Origin: a virus
Taxonomy: Duplodnaviria; Heunggongvirae; Uroviricota; Caudoviricetes
Direction: 5' to 3' (one strand)
Length of the DNA: 13,384 nt
Virus record (IMG/VR): IMGVR_UViG_2548876943_000023
Shown here: piece by piece, positions 4,031-12,433 of the stretch
Numbering within the stretch: position 1 is the stretch's first letter
Layout: every line of letters begins with the position of its first letter
Translations under genes and position numbers: made by a program
Notes under the pieces: model-generated
Database searches by the model: none
Seen by the model: only the letters and a program-made list of their open reading frames with translations
Told to the model about the DNA's origin: nothing

Positions 4031-4463
4031 CATCGCCATACATCCAGTCGTTACGGTGTGCCGCCCGTTCTTCCTGCTCGCGATACATGCCCGCTTTACG
4101 GTTTGCTTTCGTGGCTGGATCTTCCCGTGTCGTCTTACGGTTGTGGCACGTCTGGCACAATGCCTGGTGATTCCACTCAGGCCAGAAGAGAACATCACCG
4201 CCGCCATTGATGGGAATGATGTGATCCACCACAAGAGCTGGTGTATAAATACCCTTAGCCAGACAACGCACGCATAACGGGTTTTTGCTCAGGTACAGGG
4301 CGCGGTATTTGTCCCACTGTCGGGAATACCCACGTGCGCGGCGGTGTCCCCGTCTGGCATCCTCTGCACGCCATGCAGCCCGCCTGTGCTCTTCACACTT
4401 GCCGGACTTCACGCGCTTATTACAGCCCGGCTCAGTGCATCGCCTTAATGGTTGCCACGGCAT
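4023..4463 (-). CDS. HNH endonuclease (packaging-associated)
   Basis: Cys pairs and the motif CVRCLAKGIYTPALVVDHIIPINGGGDVLFWPEWNHQALCQTCHNRKT (CxxC...DH...N...CxxCH) are typical of HNH. It is adjacent to terS/terL, as in HK97-like cos phages. Its ATG overlaps the connector stop. Confidence 0.85.
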   Translation of the reverse strand: MPWQPLRRCTEPGCNKRVKSGKCEEHRRAAWRAEDARRGHRRARGYSRQWDKYRALYLSKNPLCVRCLAKGIYTPALVVDHIIPINGGGDVLFWPEWNHQALCQTCHNRKTTREDPATKANRKAGMYREQEERAAHRNDWMYGDDD

Positions 4464-4765
4464 CAGTACACCCCCACATCACGATAAACCGACCAGAGCG
4501 CAGAAATAGCCATAGGCAGTTCCGAGTGCTCAACTGGTGAAACCGCTTCCCGGTTCTCGTACAGAAAAGCGATGTACATCAGGCAACCAACACGTATTGC
4601 CGGGGTAAATTCCAGGCCGTCTTCAAAACGTTTCCCGATATGCTTCTGGCAGGCTTCCAGCGCCGCATCGGTATATATTTGCAGAAGTTCAACCTCACCA
4701 TAAAAATCATCATCAAGGCGAAGATGGGCCATTACTTCATTAAGCGTAATTCTGGATTCACTCAT
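4463..4765 (-). CDS. Head-tail connector protein (gp6-like)
   Basis: 100 aa from ATG at 4765 (MSESRITLNEVMAHLRLDDD...), the characteristic N-terminal pattern of gp6-like connectors. Shine-Dalgarno AAGGTG is upstream. Start overlaps the portal 3' end by 8 nt. Confidence 0.75.
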   Translation of the reverse strand: MSESRITLNEVMAHLRLDDDFYGEVELLQIYTDAALEACQKHIGKRFEDGLEFTPAIRVGCLMYIAFLYENREAVSPVEHSELPMAISALWSVYRDVGVY

Positions 4766-5972
4766 CTTTTTCACCTTTAATTTCCACAGTCTGCTTCCAT
4801 GCCTGGCTGAACTCATCACCACCTTCACGCGGCGGCATACCCTCACGCTCACGGGCTTCGTTCGGATTCATGATCCCGTTCTTAATCCCTTTCTCATACG
4901 TGGCATAACGTTCGGTGGGTGTGGCGCGTAATAAATCGGCTGAATCAAACTCAACCAGATAACGGGTACCAGGTACGGGAGAAGCCACCAGCAAAGCGGC
5001 CTTGATTTGCTGTTCGAAGTTCGCCAGCCATGGGCGCATTGTCATGGTCAGAAACGCGCGGCTTGCCTCGCTGAAATTGCTGTAGGTGCTGTTGCTGTAT
5101 TCCTGCAGAAAAATAGGCGATACGTTGAACATGCGGGCGATGTCTTCAATGGAGAAGCGACGGGAGGCCAGCCATTCCGCATCCTGGTTACTCATTCCCA
5201 GTTGCTTGTAATCCATGCCCCCTTCAAGGATTGGCGTTTTTCCGGCATTTTTCGCCCCCTTGTAGCGTTCCAGAGCATCTAATGCCTGTTTACCTTTCAC
5301 GCCGTCCAGCCATTCGCCTGACGTGATAATCCCTGCCGCCATCATGCCATCTTTCATAATGCTGGCTCCGTGGCGCTGTTGAGCAAGGCCAAGCCCAAGT
5401 GCCTCACGGCAAATCGTGACGGGGGAGCGCCCCAGAAAGCCATCATCCGAGGCATAGCGGAGATGCAGAACTTCTTCCTGTAAATACGTGCGCACCGTTC
5501 CTGTATAGGGTTCGGTGATGGTATATCGGTATTTGTGTGCGCCTGTGCGTTCCGGTACAACACAACCCGGTGCATAAGGATGAAGTGATTTGGGCTGCCC
5601 GTCCCGCCCCCACTCAATAACCGCATAGGCGTTACCGTTCAGCAGGCAGTGACGCATCATTGTGCGTTTAAACTGGTAAGGTGTCTGGCACGAATTAGGC
5701 TGCTCATTCAGCAGAATATCTACCGGGTGACTGTCCAGCCATTCCCGCGCCTCCCTGCCCTTGTCATTACGTACCAGATACAGATAACACGGCATCGTGG
5801 CCACCGCCTCAGCGATGACAGAAACCGCGTTCATCACTGCAGGCAATGATTCAGCCGTCCCGGCAGAAACATATTCTCCGGATCCGGTATTCGGTACGCC
5901 GGACAGCGCCAGAAAATCATCAATGGACAGGTTACGCTGCTCGCTTTTTTTACGACTAAAAGGCCACCACAT
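4758..5972 (-). CDS. Phage portal protein, HK97 family
   Basis: 404 aa from ATG at 5972 (MWWPFSRKK...). Size and position fit an HK97-type portal, with an acidic C-terminus. The start lies 1 nt from the protease stop. Confidence 0.9.
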   Translation of the reverse strand: MWWPFSRKKSEQRNLSIDDFLALSGVPNTGSGEYVSAGTAESLPAVMNAVSVIAEAVATMPCYLYLVRNDKGREAREWLDSHPVDILLNEQPNSCQTPYQFKRTMMRHCLLNGNAYAVIEWGRDGQPKSLHPYAPGCVVPERTGAHKYRYTITEPYTGTVRTYLQEEVLHLRYASDDGFLGRSPVTICREALGLGLAQQRHGASIMKDGMMAAGIITSGEWLDGVKGKQALDALERYKGAKNAGKTPILEGGMDYKQLGMSNQDAEWLASRRFSIEDIARMFNVSPIFLQEYSNSTYSNFSEASRAFLTMTMRPWLANFEQQIKAALLVASPVPGTRYLVEFDSADLLRATPTERYATYEKGIKNGIMNPNEAREREGMPPREGGDEFSQAWKQTVEIKGEKDE

Positions 5973-5973
5973 A

Positions 5974-6534
5974 TCACAACCCCGCCAGCTCAGACCAACG
6001 ATGACGATTATTTCCTGTCGGACGTAATTCAGGGTGCTGTGCAAACAACGAACGGCGGGCAATCTCCACGCCAGATTCTGGATAAGCAGGCATCGACGTT
6101 ATTGTGATTTCACGGAGTTCAGCGGCGGTTACGGTACGCAGATACGGTTTTTGCGCAATACTCCACTCCTCGCATAATGCGCGAAAACCAAAGCTCATTC
6201 CTGTAATGTCGCCACGCTCCACCAGCGTAAGCACATCTTTTCCAAGCTGGGTATCCGGCGGTGTCAGCTCAAAACGTAACCCGGTGTTATCCTCAGTCAG
6301 TACCAGAGTGCCGGATTTGGTGCGCCCCAGCAGTTGGGTATAGTCATGCTCATACAGGCAGCGCACATCATTACCCGCCGCCAGATAGTCAGCAAAAGCC
6401 CCCGGCGTGAACTGTTCGCGGAATTCGTCCCAGATAATTTCTGAAAGGCTGTTCCAGCGAACGGCATACCCCACCAGCTTTTTATTGCTGGCGGTCAGTT
6501 CAGATGTGCGGATTTCAAAATCGGTGTTTTTCAT
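5974..6534 (-). CDS. Prohead protease, HK97 family
   Basis: 186 aa with motifs LVGYAVRWNS...FTPGAF...YEHD...LGRT...TEDNTGLRFEL...GMSFGF consistent with HK97 prohead protease. GGAG Shine-Dalgarno 8 nt upstream. Confidence 0.85.
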   Translation of the reverse strand: MKNTDFEIRTSELTASNKKLVGYAVRWNSLSEIIWDEFREQFTPGAFADYLAAGNDVRCLYEHDYTQLLGRTKSGTLVLTEDNTGLRFELTPPDTQLGKDVLTLVERGDITGMSFGFRALCEEWSIAQKPYLRTVTAAELREITITSMPAYPESGVEIARRSLFAQHPELRPTGNNRHRWSELAGL

Positions 6535-6554
6535 CGGTGTACTCCATAAAGCTG

Positions 6555-6580
6555 AAAAAGGAGGCCGCAGCCTCCTCCTT
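6555..6580 (-). terminator. Intra-operon hairpin with T-tract between the capsid and protease genes (likely a partial terminator)
   Basis: On the minus strand: AGGAGGC-tgcg-GCCTCCT (7-bp GC-rich stem, 4-nt loop) followed by TTTT. It sits 9-34 nt downstream of the capsid stop. Confidence 0.45.
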
Positions 6581-6588
6581 ACTCATGA

Positions 6589-7758
6589 CTAGCCAGCTTT
6601 CATTTCCAGAATTTTGATGGCGTTTGAATCCACCACACCACCGCCCAGATATTTATCCGTGTGGACCTTGTAGAATCCGGGTTCAGTAATGTTGTCCGGT
6701 CGGGTGCGAATCCCTGTTACATGATCAACGATGAAATAACCACGACTGAAATCGCCAACCGCTAGCGGTGCTTTTCCTGCGCCGATGTCCGGCATGGACT
6801 CCAGGCAGTAAACAGGACGACCAAGCAACATATCCGGCGCACCTTCTTTAAGGCTGTCGCGCCAGATATAATCGCCGTTCTCATTTTTCAGCTTCTGTAG
6901 TGTCCCTGCCGTGCCCGAGTTCATCACCCAGACGGCATTTTTGCGGTATTTCGCTTTCAGCTTGTAGAGAATGTCGATCAGTTCGTCCGCTGTAATGGCG
7001 GTTCCACTTGCCGCTACCATTTTTTCAATGGTGCCAAAAGCGCGGGTTTTGTCACTGGTCGCCGCACGGGTGTAAGCCATGAAGCCTTTCGGCTTGCCGT
7101 TACCGTCGCCATTAACAAAATCATCCTCTTCGGTGCTGGCGAACGTGTCGGCAATTTCGGAGGATAACCAGCCCAGAATATCCACCTCTGAAAAATCAAG
7201 GATTTCCTGCGTGGTTTTCGGGTAGGCGTAGATCGGATTCAGCTTGATGGTTACGCGTTCAATTTTCGGGGTGTTGGTTTCACTGCGTGCGCTGCCTTCT
7301 GTGCCTCGTCCTACAGTTGCGCCGCCAGTGGAAACCAGTTTCTGAAACTCATTTGATTTTGCGGTCTTCACGGTCGCGATCACGCGCATAACACTGTCAT
7401 CCTGTAGCTGGCGCATGACTTCGCGATCGAGCTCAGGAATTACGGTATATCCGCCATCCCTGCCGCTGTCAGTGCTGGTGGACAGTGATCGCACATCTCC
7501 GGTTACGATGTAGTTACGCAATTCATCAGATGATAATTTCTGGATGCCCGTTCCTGGCTTGCTGCGTTCTTCATCAGCCACAGACTCGAGGCGGGAAATT
7601 TCTGTGTCGAGGGAGTCGGCTTTTGCACGCAGTTCATCAAACTGTTTGCCCTCGTCATCGTTCAGGCTGCGGTTTTCACTGTCGGCTTTTTCCAGCAGAG
7701 ATCGCATCTGGTTTTTCAGGGCGGTTTTTTGCTGGCGGAGTTCGATTAATTTCTTCAT
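6589..7758 (-). CDS. Major capsid protein, HK97 family, with N-terminal coiled-coil (delta/scaffold-like) region
   Basis: 389 aa. The N-terminal ~70 aa (MKKLIELRQQKTALKNQMRSLLEKADSENRSL...) look like a coiled coil, followed by a body typical of an HK97-fold capsid. Gene order context supports the call. Confidence 0.9.
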   Translation of the reverse strand: MKKLIELRQQKTALKNQMRSLLEKADSENRSLNDDEGKQFDELRAKADSLDTEISRLESVADEERSKPGTGIQKLSSDELRNYIVTGDVRSLSTSTDSGRDGGYTVIPELDREVMRQLQDDSVMRVIATVKTAKSNEFQKLVSTGGATVGRGTEGSARSETNTPKIERVTIKLNPIYAYPKTTQEILDFSEVDILGWLSSEIADTFASTEEDDFVNGDGNGKPKGFMAYTRAATSDKTRAFGTIEKMVAASGTAITADELIDILYKLKAKYRKNAVWVMNSGTAGTLQKLKNENGDYIWRDSLKEGAPDMLLGRPVYCLESMPDIGAGKAPLAVGDFSRGYFIVDHVTGIRTRPDNITEPGFYKVHTDKYLGGGVVDSNAIKILEMKAG

Positions 7759-8044: not shown

Positions 8045-8551
8045 ATGAATTTAAGCGCAATGGTATACCCTGATACTTTCATAATTAATGGCGAATCATT
8101 CAGAGGTAAAAGAAACGCAAAAGAAAACAAGGTATTAATTCCATATACAAATGAACCGGAAGTAACTATTGGTCAACACATTATCCAGCGTGTCGGTAAA
8201 AACGAGATAAATCTAAAAATTATAGATATGAAGTTGCTTCCCAATGGAACCCTCAGACAGGGAACCAATCATCCAAATATGTTGACTCTCTATATTGAAA
8301 ATATCACGGGAAATGAACATATGACGCCAACTAAAAGTAATACATTTAACATTGGTTCAATTAGTGGTGATCAAGTGCAGATAGGTGAGCATAACCATAT
8401 GCTGGTAAACATCAGCATCACTGAACTGGTTGAAAAAGTCGCTAAATCGGGGGATGTACAAGCCAAATCAGTATTAAAGCAGTTACTGGAAAACAGTACC
8501 GTTGCCAGCATTGTTGGGGCTGGCGCAAGTGCCCTAATAGGCTTACTGTAA
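8045..8551 (+). CDS. Hypothetical cargo protein (168 aa) with hydrophobic C-terminal segment; candidate defence or helper-interference effector
   Basis: Clean ORF on the opposite strand to all backbone genes. Visibly AT-rich, with N/I/K-rich codon usage. Has its own promoter, Shine-Dalgarno and terminator. The C-terminal 17 aa (TVASIVGAGASALIGLL) form a small-residue-rich hydrophobic helix. No family recognised. Confidence 0.7.
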   Translation: MNLSAMVYPDTFIINGESFRGKRNAKENKVLIPYTNEPEVTIGQHIIQRVGKNEINLKIIDMKLLPNGTLRQGTNHPNMLTLYIENITGNEHMTPTKSNTFNIGSISGDQVQIGEHNHMLVNISITELVEKVAKSGDVQAKSVLKQLLENSTVASIVGAGASALIGLL

Positions 8552-8851: not shown

Positions 8852-9277
8852 CTAAAACGGTATGTTGTCCCCGTACGGATCATCGTGCTGACCCGTCTGC
8901 TGTTTTGCCCTGTTCAGTGCGTCAGTCGCCTGGCTCTGCTGGCCTTTTTTGCCGCCCGGTCGCACCGTTCGCGCACTGATTACGCTGTCTGCGATAACCT
9001 GCCAGCCTTGCCGCGTTTCGCCGTTCTGGCCTGTCCACTGGCTTACCTGCATGTTACCCACCACGCTCACCAGTTCGCCTTTGTGGTGTTTTGCCAGTGC
9101 ATCGGCCTGTCTGCCAAACGCCAGAACAGAAAGCCACATCGTCACCGCACCATCATCAGCCTGACTGCATGGCTGGGGGACCGCCATACTTACCATCGCC
9201 ATTTGTGTACCCTTGCTGGTGGTCTTTAACTGCGGGTCATTTGTCAGCCGCCCGTAAGCGGCTATCTGTGCTGTCAT
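8852..9277 (-). CDS. SSB-like OB-fold single-stranded DNA-binding protein (short form)
   Basis: The N-terminal pattern (IAAYGRLTNDPQLK...) and the core (W-LSVLAFGRQAD-ALAKHHKGELVSVVGNMQVSQWTGQNGETRQGWQVIADSV) resemble bacterial SSB. The C-terminal tip ...DDPYGDNIPF matches the SSB acidic tail ending in IPF. ATGA overlap with the upstream ORF and GGAGGGA Shine-Dalgarno. Confidence 0.65.
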   Translation of the reverse strand: MTAQIAAYGRLTNDPQLKTTSKGTQMAMVSMAVPQPCSQADDGAVTMWLSVLAFGRQADALAKHHKGELVSVVGNMQVSQWTGQNGETRQGWQVIADSVISARTVRPGGKKGQQSQATDALNRAKQQTGQHDDPYGDNIPF

Positions 9278-9519
9278 GATTCCATCCCTCCGGTGTTAAC
9301 GTTGATGGTTGTCACCTGTTCCGCTTCGGCAATCTCCCGCTCTATCAGCGTGGCAAAATTTGCCGCCGCCGTGGTCATGAATGCGCTTATCAGTTCGGGA
9401 TGTGCTTTCGCGTATCCTTCCCCGGCGTTGCGGTCGATGATTTTTATCGACACCCTTAACCAGTGTTCCGTCAAATCAAGGGCGTGCGATTGTGATTTTT
9501 TTGTGTGCTTCGCTGTCAC
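9274..9519 (-). CDS. Hypothetical small protein (81 aa), GTG start
   Basis: ORF translationally coupled to the SSB-like gene (ATGA overlap). Only a GTG start is available at 9519, with a weak Shine-Dalgarno. No family recognised. Confidence 0.4.
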   Translation of the reverse strand: MTAKHTKKSQSHALDLTEHWLRVSIKIIDRNAGEGYAKAHPELISAFMTTAAANFATLIEREIAEAEQVTTINVNTGGMES

Positions 9520-9564
9520 AGGCTTTATCTCACAGCAGTAAATTAAAATTTTTGCGTTTTAACC

Positions 9565-9786
9565 CTTCACCTGTTCACCTTTTGATATTTTCTCTTTTAA
9601 TTCATAATGTTAAGGGGTGAACAGTTTCAAAAAAACTATTCACCAACTGTTCACCACTGTTCACCCTTGAAGCTCAATAAACAATCAAAAAGGTGAACAG
9701 TGAATAGTTTGGTGAACAGTTCATAAATAACTGTTCACCCTATAATATACTGATATAAAAGATATTTATGACAGGGTGAACAGTTA
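9565..9786. repeat. Iteron array (about 10 copies of GGTGAACAGT(T) and variants, both orientations) flanking an AT-rich core; putative origin of replication
   Basis: Copies at about 9571-9579, 9616-9626, 9636-9644, 9645-9655, 9656-9666, 9692-9700, 9700-9707, 9711-9721, 9729-9740 and 9775-9786. AT-rich stretch 9741-9770 includes TATAAT. The array lies immediately 3' of the primase/helicase stop, as with PICI/SaPI origins. Confidence 0.6.
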
Positions 9787-9796
9787 TTCCATAAGT

Positions 9797-11614
9797 TTAA
9801 TTTTTGCTATCGCCATTAGTGACCGATACACATGATGGCATCCAGTCTTCTGATTCCTCCGTCAGTGTCACGTTTGAACGCAAACCGTGCTTCGTTTTCC
9901 GTTTCATATACTCCCTGCCATATTCCGCCATTGCCCCCGGCATATCTTTACCGAAGCGCGTCAGTGTTACAGGTTTACCAAACCCATGTGCCCTCATATA
10001 AGCCAGATAGGCATGATAGAGATACCTGCGTGGGCTGAATGGCACAATTTCAGCATTACCCACTAACAGGCCATCACACATTACCGACGCCATGAGATAG
10101 CCGCAGAAGTCCACCAGCGAATCCCCCTCTCGCTTTATCGCCAGTGCTTCTTCAGATTTCTGCTGCTCATATAACAGGCGTCTGGCTTCGTCCTGGTCAG
10201 CAAACCGTGTAAGCAGATGGCGAATCACTACCGCCAGCTCACCTTCTATTTTTTCCGCCAGCATTGGATCACGTTCGTTCTCCGGTACAACTTCCGAAAA
10301 ATTGAATATCACCCGACGACGTGAGATCCCCCCGCTGCGGTCACTGAATGACATAGCGTTATTGTTAACCGCCAGCACTACTGCCGGAATACGTGTTGAG
10401 TAGGGGGCTTTGTGTTTCGGGTCAATTGCCACCTTGTCACCGCCTGTAATAGCCTTAATCCCTGCCCCATCACCAGCGTAGCGGGTCATATCCGGCATGA
10501 TAATCAGCGAAAAGCCAACCACTAACGCGCGTTCCCTTGCATCTTCCAGCGCCTTCATGCTTGCCGATACTGTGTTGGCCTTACCCGCCAGCATGGTGCA
10601 AATCTCCGCCATCACGCTTTTACCACTTCCCCCTGGACCTGTTACCTCAATGAATAACTGCCAGTCGTACCGGTTCGCCAGCACCATGAATAATGCAGCC
10701 AGTACGCGATCCGCCTTGCGGTCATTCTCAGCCACCGAACGGCGTAACCACTTCCAGAAATTCGGCGCATGTGTTGCCAGCGTTTCCCCCTCTGCTGGTG
10801 GGCTGAAAGGTAATTCACTGGCAATTAACAACCAGTCGTTTTTGTTATGCTCCCGAAAATTACCTGTTCTGGTATCAAATACCCCGTTACTGAATCCAAT
10901 CAGGTTACGGGCTGTATTCCCCATTACAGGCAAACTTAACTTCATGGTATCGACCGCCGATTTAATGGCGTTCTGCGAATAGCTGATCTCCGCATCAATG
11001 AAAATCTGTGCCATAGCTCGCTGTAATTCTTTATCCTGTACTGGCTCCCATACAACGCCGTTGTAATGGTGAACAGTGTCAGAGTCAGCATGAATCGCCA
11101 GTTCACCGCCATAATGTGCCAGGAGAACTTCGCCGCGTTGACTTGCTCCCATCTGGTTAAGCGCCAGTGATGAAGCGTTATCGTCTTTTACCCGCTCTTT
11201 TTTCTTTACAGGCAGTTCAACTACCTTTTTCTTTTCCGCCAGCTCTGCCCGTTCACGTTCCAGATATTCGTGCCAGTTCTCCCGTTTCTGGCTGTGCATT
11301 CCTTCAGGATAATAATCAGCATCCCTGACACCTGCCGCTGCCAGTTTCTGCCCGATGGTATTAACAAGCACCGGACGCAATAACCCCGCCTGATAGAGAC
11401 GCACGCGATAGCGTCCGTCCGGTACGATTTGCAGGTTGTCCAGTTCGGCAAGTTGTTGCTCTCCAAGCCAGACAGGTGGCACGTTATCGCCTGCCAGTCG
11501 CCCGTCCTGTTCCTGCCACTGCTTCGCATGTGCCCACGCATCACTACCCGCAAAAATGATGACTTCCGTCATTTTGTCACGCGGCTGGTGTTTTAAATTT
11601 GGCGCTTTTTTCAT
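9797..11614 (-). CDS. Primase/helicase, P4-family (D5-like) replication protein
   Basis: About 605 aa from ATG at 11614 (MKKAPNLKHQ...). Walker A motif VTGPGGSGKS and the downstream layout are typical of phage/plasmid P4-family primases. GGAGAG Shine-Dalgarno. ATGA overlap with the upstream ORF. Confidence 0.85.
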   Translation of the reverse strand: MKKAPNLKHQPRDKMTEVIIFAGSDAWAHAKQWQEQDGRLAGDNVPPVWLGEQQLAELDNLQIVPDGRYRVRLYQAGLLRPVLVNTIGQKLAAAGVRDADYYPEGMHSQKRENWHEYLERERAELAEKKKVVELPVKKKERVKDDNASSLALNQMGASQRGEVLLAHYGGELAIHADSDTVHHYNGVVWEPVQDKELQRAMAQIFIDAEISYSQNAIKSAVDTMKLSLPVMGNTARNLIGFSNGVFDTRTGNFREHNKNDWLLIASELPFSPPAEGETLATHAPNFWKWLRRSVAENDRKADRVLAALFMVLANRYDWQLFIEVTGPGGSGKSVMAEICTMLAGKANTVSASMKALEDARERALVVGFSLIIMPDMTRYAGDGAGIKAITGGDKVAIDPKHKAPYSTRIPAVVLAVNNNAMSFSDRSGGISRRRVIFNFSEVVPENERDPMLAEKIEGELAVVIRHLLTRFADQDEARRLLYEQQKSEEALAIKREGDSLVDFCGYLMASVMCDGLLVGNAEIVPFSPRRYLYHAYLAYMRAHGFGKPVTLTRFGKDMPGAMAEYGREYMKRKTKHGLRSNVTLTEESEDWMPSCVSVTNGDSKN

Positions 11615-11910
11615 TTCTGCTCTCTCCACGCGGCAATCATGTTTTTCAGTTCCTGTAGTTTTTTATCAACATCCATACATGACACATGGTTATTTCTGGA
11701 AAGCGGGATTTCCCGCCTGAATCTGCTAATAAAGATCTCCACGTTCAGCGAACTATGAAATGAATAGCCATCACGAATAAAATACACACGGTCAAACATC
11801 AGTTCTTTTACCGTTACTCTGTTACCGTTCTTATCCAGATAAATAGCGCCGGGGATAATTTTGGGGTGTGCATAACCGCTGGCAGTCAAGCCAGATAAAT
11901 ATGTTCTCAT
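11611..11910 (-). CDS. Hypothetical protein (99 aa), translationally coupled to the primase
   Basis: ATG at 11910; its stop overlaps the primase start. Visibly lower GC than the primase. No family recognised. Confidence 0.55.
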   Translation of the reverse strand: MRTYLSGLTASGYAHPKIIPGAIYLDKNGNRVTVKELMFDRVYFIRDGYSFHSSLNVEIFISRFRREIPLSRNNHVSCMDVDKKLQELKNMIAAWREQK

Positions 11911-12237: not shown

Positions 12238-12433
12238 GGCACACCCCCTGACGAATACGGGCGGCGAATACCATCACGCAGCCAGCCGGGGATTGCTGGC
12301 GTGCTTCCTGTTCGCTGGTGGCCACGATGTGAATCACGCGCGGTTGTGCCGTGCTCAGGGCGATAAAACGCCAGATGAATTTATTCAGGTTGTGCGAGTC
12401 CCGCCCTTGCGGGTGTGTGGTATGATTTAACAT
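12230..12433 (-). CDS. Possible small protein (67 aa), first gene of the minus-strand early operon
   Basis: ATG at 12433 with a GAGGT Shine-Dalgarno; overlaps the next gene's start by 8 nt. It is the C-terminal part of a long non-protein-like ORF in the track, so it is uncertain. Confidence 0.3.
   Translation of the reverse strand: MLNHTTHPQGRDSHNLNKFIWRFIALSTAQPRVIHIVATSEQEARQQSPAGCVMVFAARIRQGVCHA

Follow-up and report, generated by a model that had tools for sequence, protein, structure and literature searches.

Immediately 3′ of a replication gene, a virus-derived stretch of DNA of 13,384 nucleotides (IMG/VR record IMGVR_UViG_2548876943_000023, Caudoviricetes; the whole stretch is called the window below) carries a dense array of short repeats, or iterons, which a reading made from the letters alone had put forward as a putative island origin. 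The locus raises the questions of whether this array is indeed a replication origin, which protein recognises it and to which known origins it is related. Judged by its genes, the window is part of an Escherichia coli capsid-forming phage-inducible chromosomal island (PICI), and the gene next to the array, rep, encodes a 610-residue protein, Rep. The evidence presented here makes it very likely that the array is the Rep-bound, cis-acting replication origin of this capsid-forming PICI. Its closest relatives are the cis elements ori and crr of the satellite P4.

The repeat array and its two AT-rich spacers

The window contains 12 matches to GGTGAACAGT with at most one mismatch, both strands counted. 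In 200 dinucleotide-preserving shuffles of the window the mean was 0.72 and none of the 200 reached 12, which rules out chance or low complexity as the source of the array. Nine of the 12 matches fall in 9570–9784, and a two-mismatch limit adds two degenerate copies (9562–9571 and 9699–9708), giving 11 sites in both orientations; the sequence-only reading, which had counted about ten copies in both orientations over some 220 bp, was therefore correct. The array of ACTGTTCACC/GGTGAACAGT extends over 9562–9784, and its repeat core is the octamer TGTTCACC, eight exact copies of which lie within 9572–9782. As in other PICI origins, it stands immediately 3′ of the initiator gene: 12 bp separate its last base (9784) from the rep stop codon (9797–9799), and the distance of 10 bp given earlier holds when it is taken from the end of the region first outlined (9786). 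The components of the array are as follows.

9562–9579, top strand: two overlapping iterons at the outer left edge, ACCCTTCACC (9562–9571, two mismatches) and CCTGTTCACC (9570–9579, one mismatch)
9580–9615: AT-rich spacer A, 36 bp, flanked by mutually inverted iterons; shares homology with the spacers in the 120-bp P4 crr units
9616–9625: exact iteron GGTGAACAGT, inverted with respect to 9570–9579
9635–9665, top strand: three iterons, ACTATTCACC (9635–9644) and ACTGTTCACC (9646–9655 and 9656–9665), at spacings of 11 and 10 bp
9666–9691: central spacer, which holds the dyad centre of the entire array (9677/9678)
9692–9720, bottom strand: three iterons, exact at 9692–9701, degenerate at 9699–9708 (AGTGAATAGT) and exact at 9711–9720; the mirror image of 9635–9665
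9730–9739: exact iteron ACTGTTCACC, mirror partner of 9616–9625
9740–9774: AT-rich spacer B, 35 bp, a candidate DNA-unwinding element; resembles the P4 ori core spacer
9775–9784: exact iteron GGTGAACAGT; the related island L001 has a second tandem copy here, missing from the window

The array as a whole forms a geometric palindrome centred on 9677.5, a point that had been overlooked. Complementarity about this centre over ±100 bp is 52%, compared with 28 ± 5% at neighbouring centres, and the iterons fall into five mirror pairs, all of which deviate from exact symmetry by 0–2 bp:

9570–9579 with 9775–9784
9616–9625 with 9730–9739
9635–9644 with 9711–9720
9646–9655 with 9699–9708
9656–9665 with 9692–9701

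Where one AT-rich core had been seen (9741–9770, with the motif TATAAT), there are two AT-rich spacers. The core itself stands: TATAAT occupies 9741–9746, and a direct count puts the G+C content of 9740–9770 at about 16%. Nearest-neighbour energies rank this stretch as the least stable 30-mer in all 13.4 kb of the window (z = 3.8). By the same measure, 9584–9614 in spacer A is the third least stable 30-mer and 9703–9803 the least stable 100-mer. Both spacers are flanked by TGTTCACC on one side and GGTGAACA on the other, and the 11 iterons with the spacers at 9580–9615 and 9740–9774 reproduce a further trait of PICI origins, short iteron sets that flank an AT-rich region. No DnaA box was found in 9520–9796, and no Rfam family reached its gathering score anywhere in the window.

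The window apparently has one 10-bp iteron fewer than all 60 E. coli relatives sampled evenly down the ranking of matches, as judged from the length of the span (333–342 bp in the 60 matches and 323–331 bp in the window). In the one relative that was aligned, L001, a tandem GGTGAACAGTGGTGAACAGT at 12376–12393 stands opposite 9775–9794 of the window, and the P4 ori core is likewise tandem. The copy that the window lacks would pair, as its mirror image, with the degenerate site at 9562–9571; iteron pairs number five in the window and would number six in typical relatives.

An isolated exact TGTTCACC also lies inside the rep coding region, 32 bp from the one-mismatch copy AGTTCACC (11068–11075 and 11100–11107 in the window). 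The exact copy is kept in L001 (13679–13686). These copies could be due to chance or could form an internal Rep-binding site.

Rep and its kinship with P4

Pfam assigns to Rep the domains D5_N, DUF5906 (an SF3 ATPase) and a C-terminal Pox_D5, with a weak match to PPV_E1_C. The protein can be divided into the following parts.

9836–10126, minus strand: C-terminal origin-binding domain, amino acids 502–598, assigned from PDB 1KA8 (E = 1.8e-24), Pfam Pox_D5 and covariation
9872–9907, minus strand: hypervariable segment, amino acids 575–586 (MKRKTKHG-LRSN), within the origin-binding domain
10127–11179, minus strand: D5_N and SF3 (D5/DUF5906) helicase core, with the Walker A motif GPGGSGKS; 51% identical to P4 alpha
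11180–11629, minus strand: N-terminal domain, amino acids 1–150; not the P4 primase domain; Toprim-like fold, activity uncertain

For the comparison with P4 we used the GenBank annotation of NC_001609 and the structure of the origin-binding domain of P4 alpha (PDB 1KA8). Amino acids 150–600 of Rep are 51% identical to amino acids 320–771 of alpha, and amino acids 502–598 match the solved domain, such that Rep, like alpha, carries an alpha-type origin-binding domain fused to an SF3 helicase. The N-terminal zinc-finger/Toprim primase domain of alpha has no counterpart: amino acids 1–150 of Rep gave no alignment with the P4 primase region (hhalign probability 0.5%) and no meaningful sequence match in Pfam, NCBIfam or PDB sequences. 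A fold search with these 150 residues returned a Toprim-like fold that lacks the canonical acidic residues, and other E. coli proteins join the same domain to RepA-type ATPases (PF13481). The protein had been named a primase/helicase from the sequence. Its helicase and origin-binding domain are clear, but the first half of that label is doubtful, because the N terminus is Toprim-like without the canonical catalytic residues.

The iteron core is a known element of P4. In the P4 record, TGTTCACC is the annotated 'ori type 1 repeat', present in ori (9086–9809) and crr (4291–4590), and all 11 exact copies in P4 are confined to these two regions. P4 ori also has the extended GGTGAACAGT, and the extended form GGTGAACAG(T) is common to P4 and the window. 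Alpha presumably binds the type 1 repeats, in line with the GenBank annotation and the PDB match.

The similarity extends beyond the iterons to the DNA between them. The module of TGTTCACC, an AT-rich spacer of 35–36 bp and GGTGAACA is found twice in the window and once in P4 ori, and each unit of P4 crr has the same module with GGTGAATA as its second arm. Spacer A is identical to P4 crrB at 28 of 36 positions and to crrA at 26 of 36, and spacer B is identical to the P4 ori spacer at 22 of 35; in both cases none of 500 shuffles reached the score. The cross comparisons (spacer A with ori, spacer B with crr) were no better than shuffles. Because spacer A matches crr and spacer B matches ori, the array seems to unite a crr-like and an ori-like module within 220 bp. 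P4 also resembles the window in having a cluster, crr, immediately 3′ of its initiator gene, where it follows a terminator.

The two systems nevertheless differ in several respects. In P4, ori and crr are separate, 4.5 kb apart, whereas the island has a single compact cluster of 220 bp in place of two cis elements several kilobases apart. The P4 type 2 repeats (CAYTTAAAGY) that accompany the P4 core form no cluster in the window, where one match with one mismatch was found, away from the array, against 3.5 expected. Alpha has a primase and zinc-finger N terminus that Rep lacks, and the element that carries the window array is a PICI with capsid genes of its own, not a P4-like satellite. At its outer edge, P4 crr has a perfect DnaA box (TTATCCACA; L002, 4280–4290), which has no equivalent in the window array.

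Iteron variation among relatives and the tested origin of EcCICFT073

A scan of 185,579 species genomes yielded 72 loci encoding Rep relatives, and at each of them iterons were sought by counting k-mers de novo over the 450 bp that follow the rep stop codon. The arrays of the relatives are laid out similarly, with tandem pairs, an AT-rich gap and inverted copies, and the repeat sequence differs between groups:

TGTTCACC: the window, L001, P4, L033 and L041; L003–L009 with a different flanking base
TGTCTACC: L007, L011 and L012
TGTCCGCC: L014 and L015
TGTCCACC: L016
TGTGCACC: Proteus L044
TATACAYC: Xenorhabdus
TCTCTACC: L052

Within the class of the window, six loci were aligned (from Escherichia, Klebsiella, Raoultella, Kluyvera and Pluralibacter). 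Iteron columns were invariant in 70% of cases, as opposed to 29% of other columns (Fisher p = 1.5e-10), and spacer A showed conserved TGAAT/TAAC columns.

Between classes, an alignment of the C-terminal domain places the differences mainly in one short segment, amino acids 575–586 in the window. In TGTCTACC elements this segment is KRAKCTKGPDKGRVITN, with a five-residue insertion, and in TGTCCGCC elements it is KKAESKKKATRGRIQSN. In pairwise comparisons of 14 Rep proteins of PICI type, identity between proteins that share an iteron is 91% in the body of the domain and 78% in the segment, which is 12–17 residues long; between proteins whose iterons differ it is 83% and 24%, respectively. The helicase core of L007 is 93% identical to that of the window, compared with 89–90% in same-iteron relatives, and its segment and iterons both differ; alpha is 51% identical to Rep, yet has the same iteron and a similar segment (EKRHTKQG-IQTN), the resemblance between the P4 and PICI segments being KRxTKxG. 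The segment follows the last helix of the domain, which makes it the probable wing hairpin of a winged-helix fold.

The sequence-only reading had named another small regulator as an alternative binder of the repeats. This is disfavoured, because only the Rep binding domain changes with the iteron sequence. The orf81, SSB (single-stranded DNA-binding protein), DUF4222 and orf106 genes are missing from most relatives that keep the array, and orf81 is 83% identical in strain CFT073 despite different iterons; all four products were rejected as iteron binders on grounds of absence or lack of co-variation.

Experimental data exist for a homologous segment. Fillol-Salom 2018 cloned the rep-ori segment of EcCICFT073 in a temperature-sensitive plasmid and obtained growth at the restrictive temperature; deletion of rep abolished this growth and deletion of ori reduced it significantly (PMC6092414). 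The organisation of PICI origins was presented there as common to no other known bacterial replicon (PMC6092414). We located EcCICFT073 in CFT073, where its Rep is 49% identical to that of the window over the full length, N-terminal domain included. The two loci share a DUF4222 gene upstream of rep and orf81 and SSB genes downstream of it, and the tested intergenic region is laid out as in the window, a tandem pair being separated from inverted copies by an AT-rich gap of about 36 bp. EcCICFT073 differs in having TGTCTACC-type iterons and a different hypervariable segment, and the window island differs in having a full capsid and packaging module. The prototype capsid-forming island EcCIEDL933 replicates after induction of a helper (10.1101/2022.09.08.507074).

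Other systems resemble the array in part. Staphylococcal pathogenicity islands (SaPIs), which had been invoked for the origin position, have an origin immediately 3′ of rep with two short-iteron sets flanking an AT-rich melting region, and, as initiator, a self-loading helicase whose binding domain is C-terminal (PMC6092414). That analogy stands as a likeness of organisation, made by comparing layouts and not sequences and with Gram-positive hosts on the SaPI side, but P4 ori/crr is the closest relative, because its iteron core is identical and its binding domain and spacers are homologous. The origins of papillomavirus E1 and SV40 large T likewise have palindromic short sites beside AT-rich DNA and an SF3 helicase initiator with a separate origin-binding domain; the fold family of that domain is different and the sequences are unrelated, a likeness of working and not of membership. 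By contrast, the array does not belong with the iteron plasmid origins of the RepA/pi/TrfA type, which have direct repeats of 17–22 bp in one orientation, DnaA boxes and a WH1–WH2 Rep initiator, whereas the window has repeats of 8–10 bp in both orientations, no DnaA box and a helicase as initiator.

Proposed origin function, island setting and significance

The array agrees with PICI origins in every feature that can be judged from sequence, and with the P4 origin in its iterons and in the binding domain of its initiator. The earlier proposal of an island origin is supported by the PICI context and by the cloning test of the homologous EcCICFT073 region, which has the same layout. The array statistics, the domain homologies, the identity with the P4 type 1 repeat, the instability of the spacers, the conservation of the iterons and their co-variation with the binding domain are direct observations. 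From them we infer Rep binding, melting, helicase loading and a start site as follows. On induction by a helper phage, the island would make Rep (9797–11629, minus strand), whose C-terminal, P4-alpha-type origin-binding domain would recognise the 8–10-bp iterons through the core TGTTCACC. Because the iterons form mirror-image pairs about 9677.5, Rep would load as two opposed groups, on either side of the AT-rich spacers. The SF3 helicase part would then oligomerise, and the DNA would melt at an AT-rich spacer, most likely that at 9740–9774, beside the rep stop codon. The island SSB would cover the single strands, priming would be performed by the N-terminal Toprim-like domain or by host DnaG, and host polymerase would copy the excised circle.

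Several observations weigh against assigning the array this role. The experimental origin data come from the homologous EcCICFT073 segment and not from this allele, which is itself one iteron short of that of the sampled E. coli relatives. The co-variation comprises few independent switches, all among related sequences. The P4 primase domain is absent and the N terminus has no canonical Toprim residues, which leaves self-priming by Rep unproven. A single-sequence AlphaFold model of the binding domain was unsuccessful (predicted local distance difference test score of 47) and did not confirm the wing, which we therefore still infer. Finally, the cluster immediately 3′ of P4 alpha is crr, an accessory cis element, and the annotated start of P4 replication is ori, 4.5 kb away, so that position alone does not prove initiation at the array.

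This last analogy underlies the most serious rival explanation, that the array is a crr-like accessory element only, bound by Rep and needed in cis or for copy control by looping or handcuffing, with synthesis starting elsewhere. The homology of spacer A with the crr spacers fits such a role. However, spacer B is ori-like and includes the least stable DNA of the window, and neither the window nor the complete island L001 nor the Klebsiella-type relative L003 has a second cluster of the motif that could serve as ori, which rules out a separate ori at a second iteron cluster. In addition, a plasmid with rep and ori of EcCICFT073 as its only island DNA replicated less well when ori was deleted (PMC6092414). 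We consider a purely crr-like role improbable.

Slightly less probable again is that the array serves mainly as a transcriptional operator or promoter, either for the downstream orf81 and ssb or for autoregulation of rep. A position between genes of a single operon and the presence of TATAAT would fit such a role, and initiator proteins often autoregulate through their own iterons. Yet the strand of the TATAAT points into the 3′ end of rep, a scan of 9200–10000 found no sigma-70-like promoter or terminator on either strand, and in most array-bearing relatives orf81 and ssb are missing. Nor would an operator need as many as 11 sites, arranged as a palindrome of 220 bp about two unstable spacers. 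A secondary regulatory role, alongside that of a Rep-bound origin, is possible. A packaging (cos or pac) site for the TerS/TerL/HNH machinery of the island is scarcely credible: terminase small subunits can bind arrays of short repeats, but this array is about 5 kb from the terminase genes, its repeat sequence tracks the Rep binding domain, and the same array is present in classical PICIs and P4, which have other packaging systems.

The island setting is best seen in a relative from strain B1W1, which is 98% identical over the 501-bp origin region and has the full island between clpS and cspD. The gene order there is integrase, helix-turn-helix (HTH) regulator, icd-like gene, DUF4222, 'DNA primase family protein', a small open reading frame (ORF) and SSB, followed by major capsid protein, protease, portal, connector, HNH, TerS and TerL. 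The island regulator is of the alpA-type HTH kind. Pfam matches in the window itself include capsid, protease, portal and SSB, in keeping with the location of the array in a PICI. Two of the neighbouring genes are listed here.

8852–9277, minus strand: island single-stranded DNA-binding protein (Pfam SSB, E = 2e-17), in the same operon, downstream of the origin
8045–8551, plus strand, opposite to the operon: ORF of 168 amino acids (PHROG 5789, function unknown; no Pfam match), in a low-GC patch (35–38%) between the replication and capsid modules; likely an island accessory gene

The 106-residue ORF upstream of rep has no similarity to P4 ORF106, which we take to be the copy-number gene cnr.

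Two further carriers of the allele were noted. A 10,790-bp circular 'plasmid' from a human E. coli isolate (L078; NZ_CP148328.1, pZ1323HEC0475-3) is a PICI with integrase, HTH regulator, icd-like gene, DUF4222, rep with the same origin allele and a protease–capsid fusion. This record may be an excised, replicating PICI captured by assembly; its separate circular deposit is suggestive of, and consistent with, autonomous replication, and is no proof of it. In the O157:H7 strain L079, a classical PICI with the same rep-ori allele lies between two fragments of prophage terminase large-subunit genes (5774–6904 and 17323–18327), an arrangement that points to integration of the island into a prophage packaging gene. 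No connection between this allele and EcCIEDL933 was established.

This kind of origin has already been described for PICIs and is no new kind of system; the present iteron allele may already be drawn in Figure 2a of Fillol-Salom 2018. What this locus may add is that a PICI origin is directly homologous to P4 ori and crr, that the two modules are joined compactly and that iterons and segment switch as a pair. The origin region is present in 594–674 of 5,426 complete E. coli genomes and the P4-type crr, which has the TGTTCACC core in common with the PICI allele, in 1,078 of 5,426. The analysis provides a well-supported origin location for a satellite family that about one in nine complete E. 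coli genomes carry, and it ties a PICI origin directly to that of P4. More tentatively, and with considerable doubt, the P4-like and PICI or capsid-forming PICI families would share a TGTTCACC recognition code; because their iteron is the same and their segments are similar, they could activate one another's origins or compete at them, switching of iteron and segment would be an escape from such cross-talk, and the origin would be a compact fusion of ori and crr. If true, that fusion would offer a simpler system in which to learn the role of crr. The short protein segment and the two or three central bases of the iteron are a candidate swappable specificity pair, which might account for the way in which satellites sharing a host evade or make use of one another's replication proteins.
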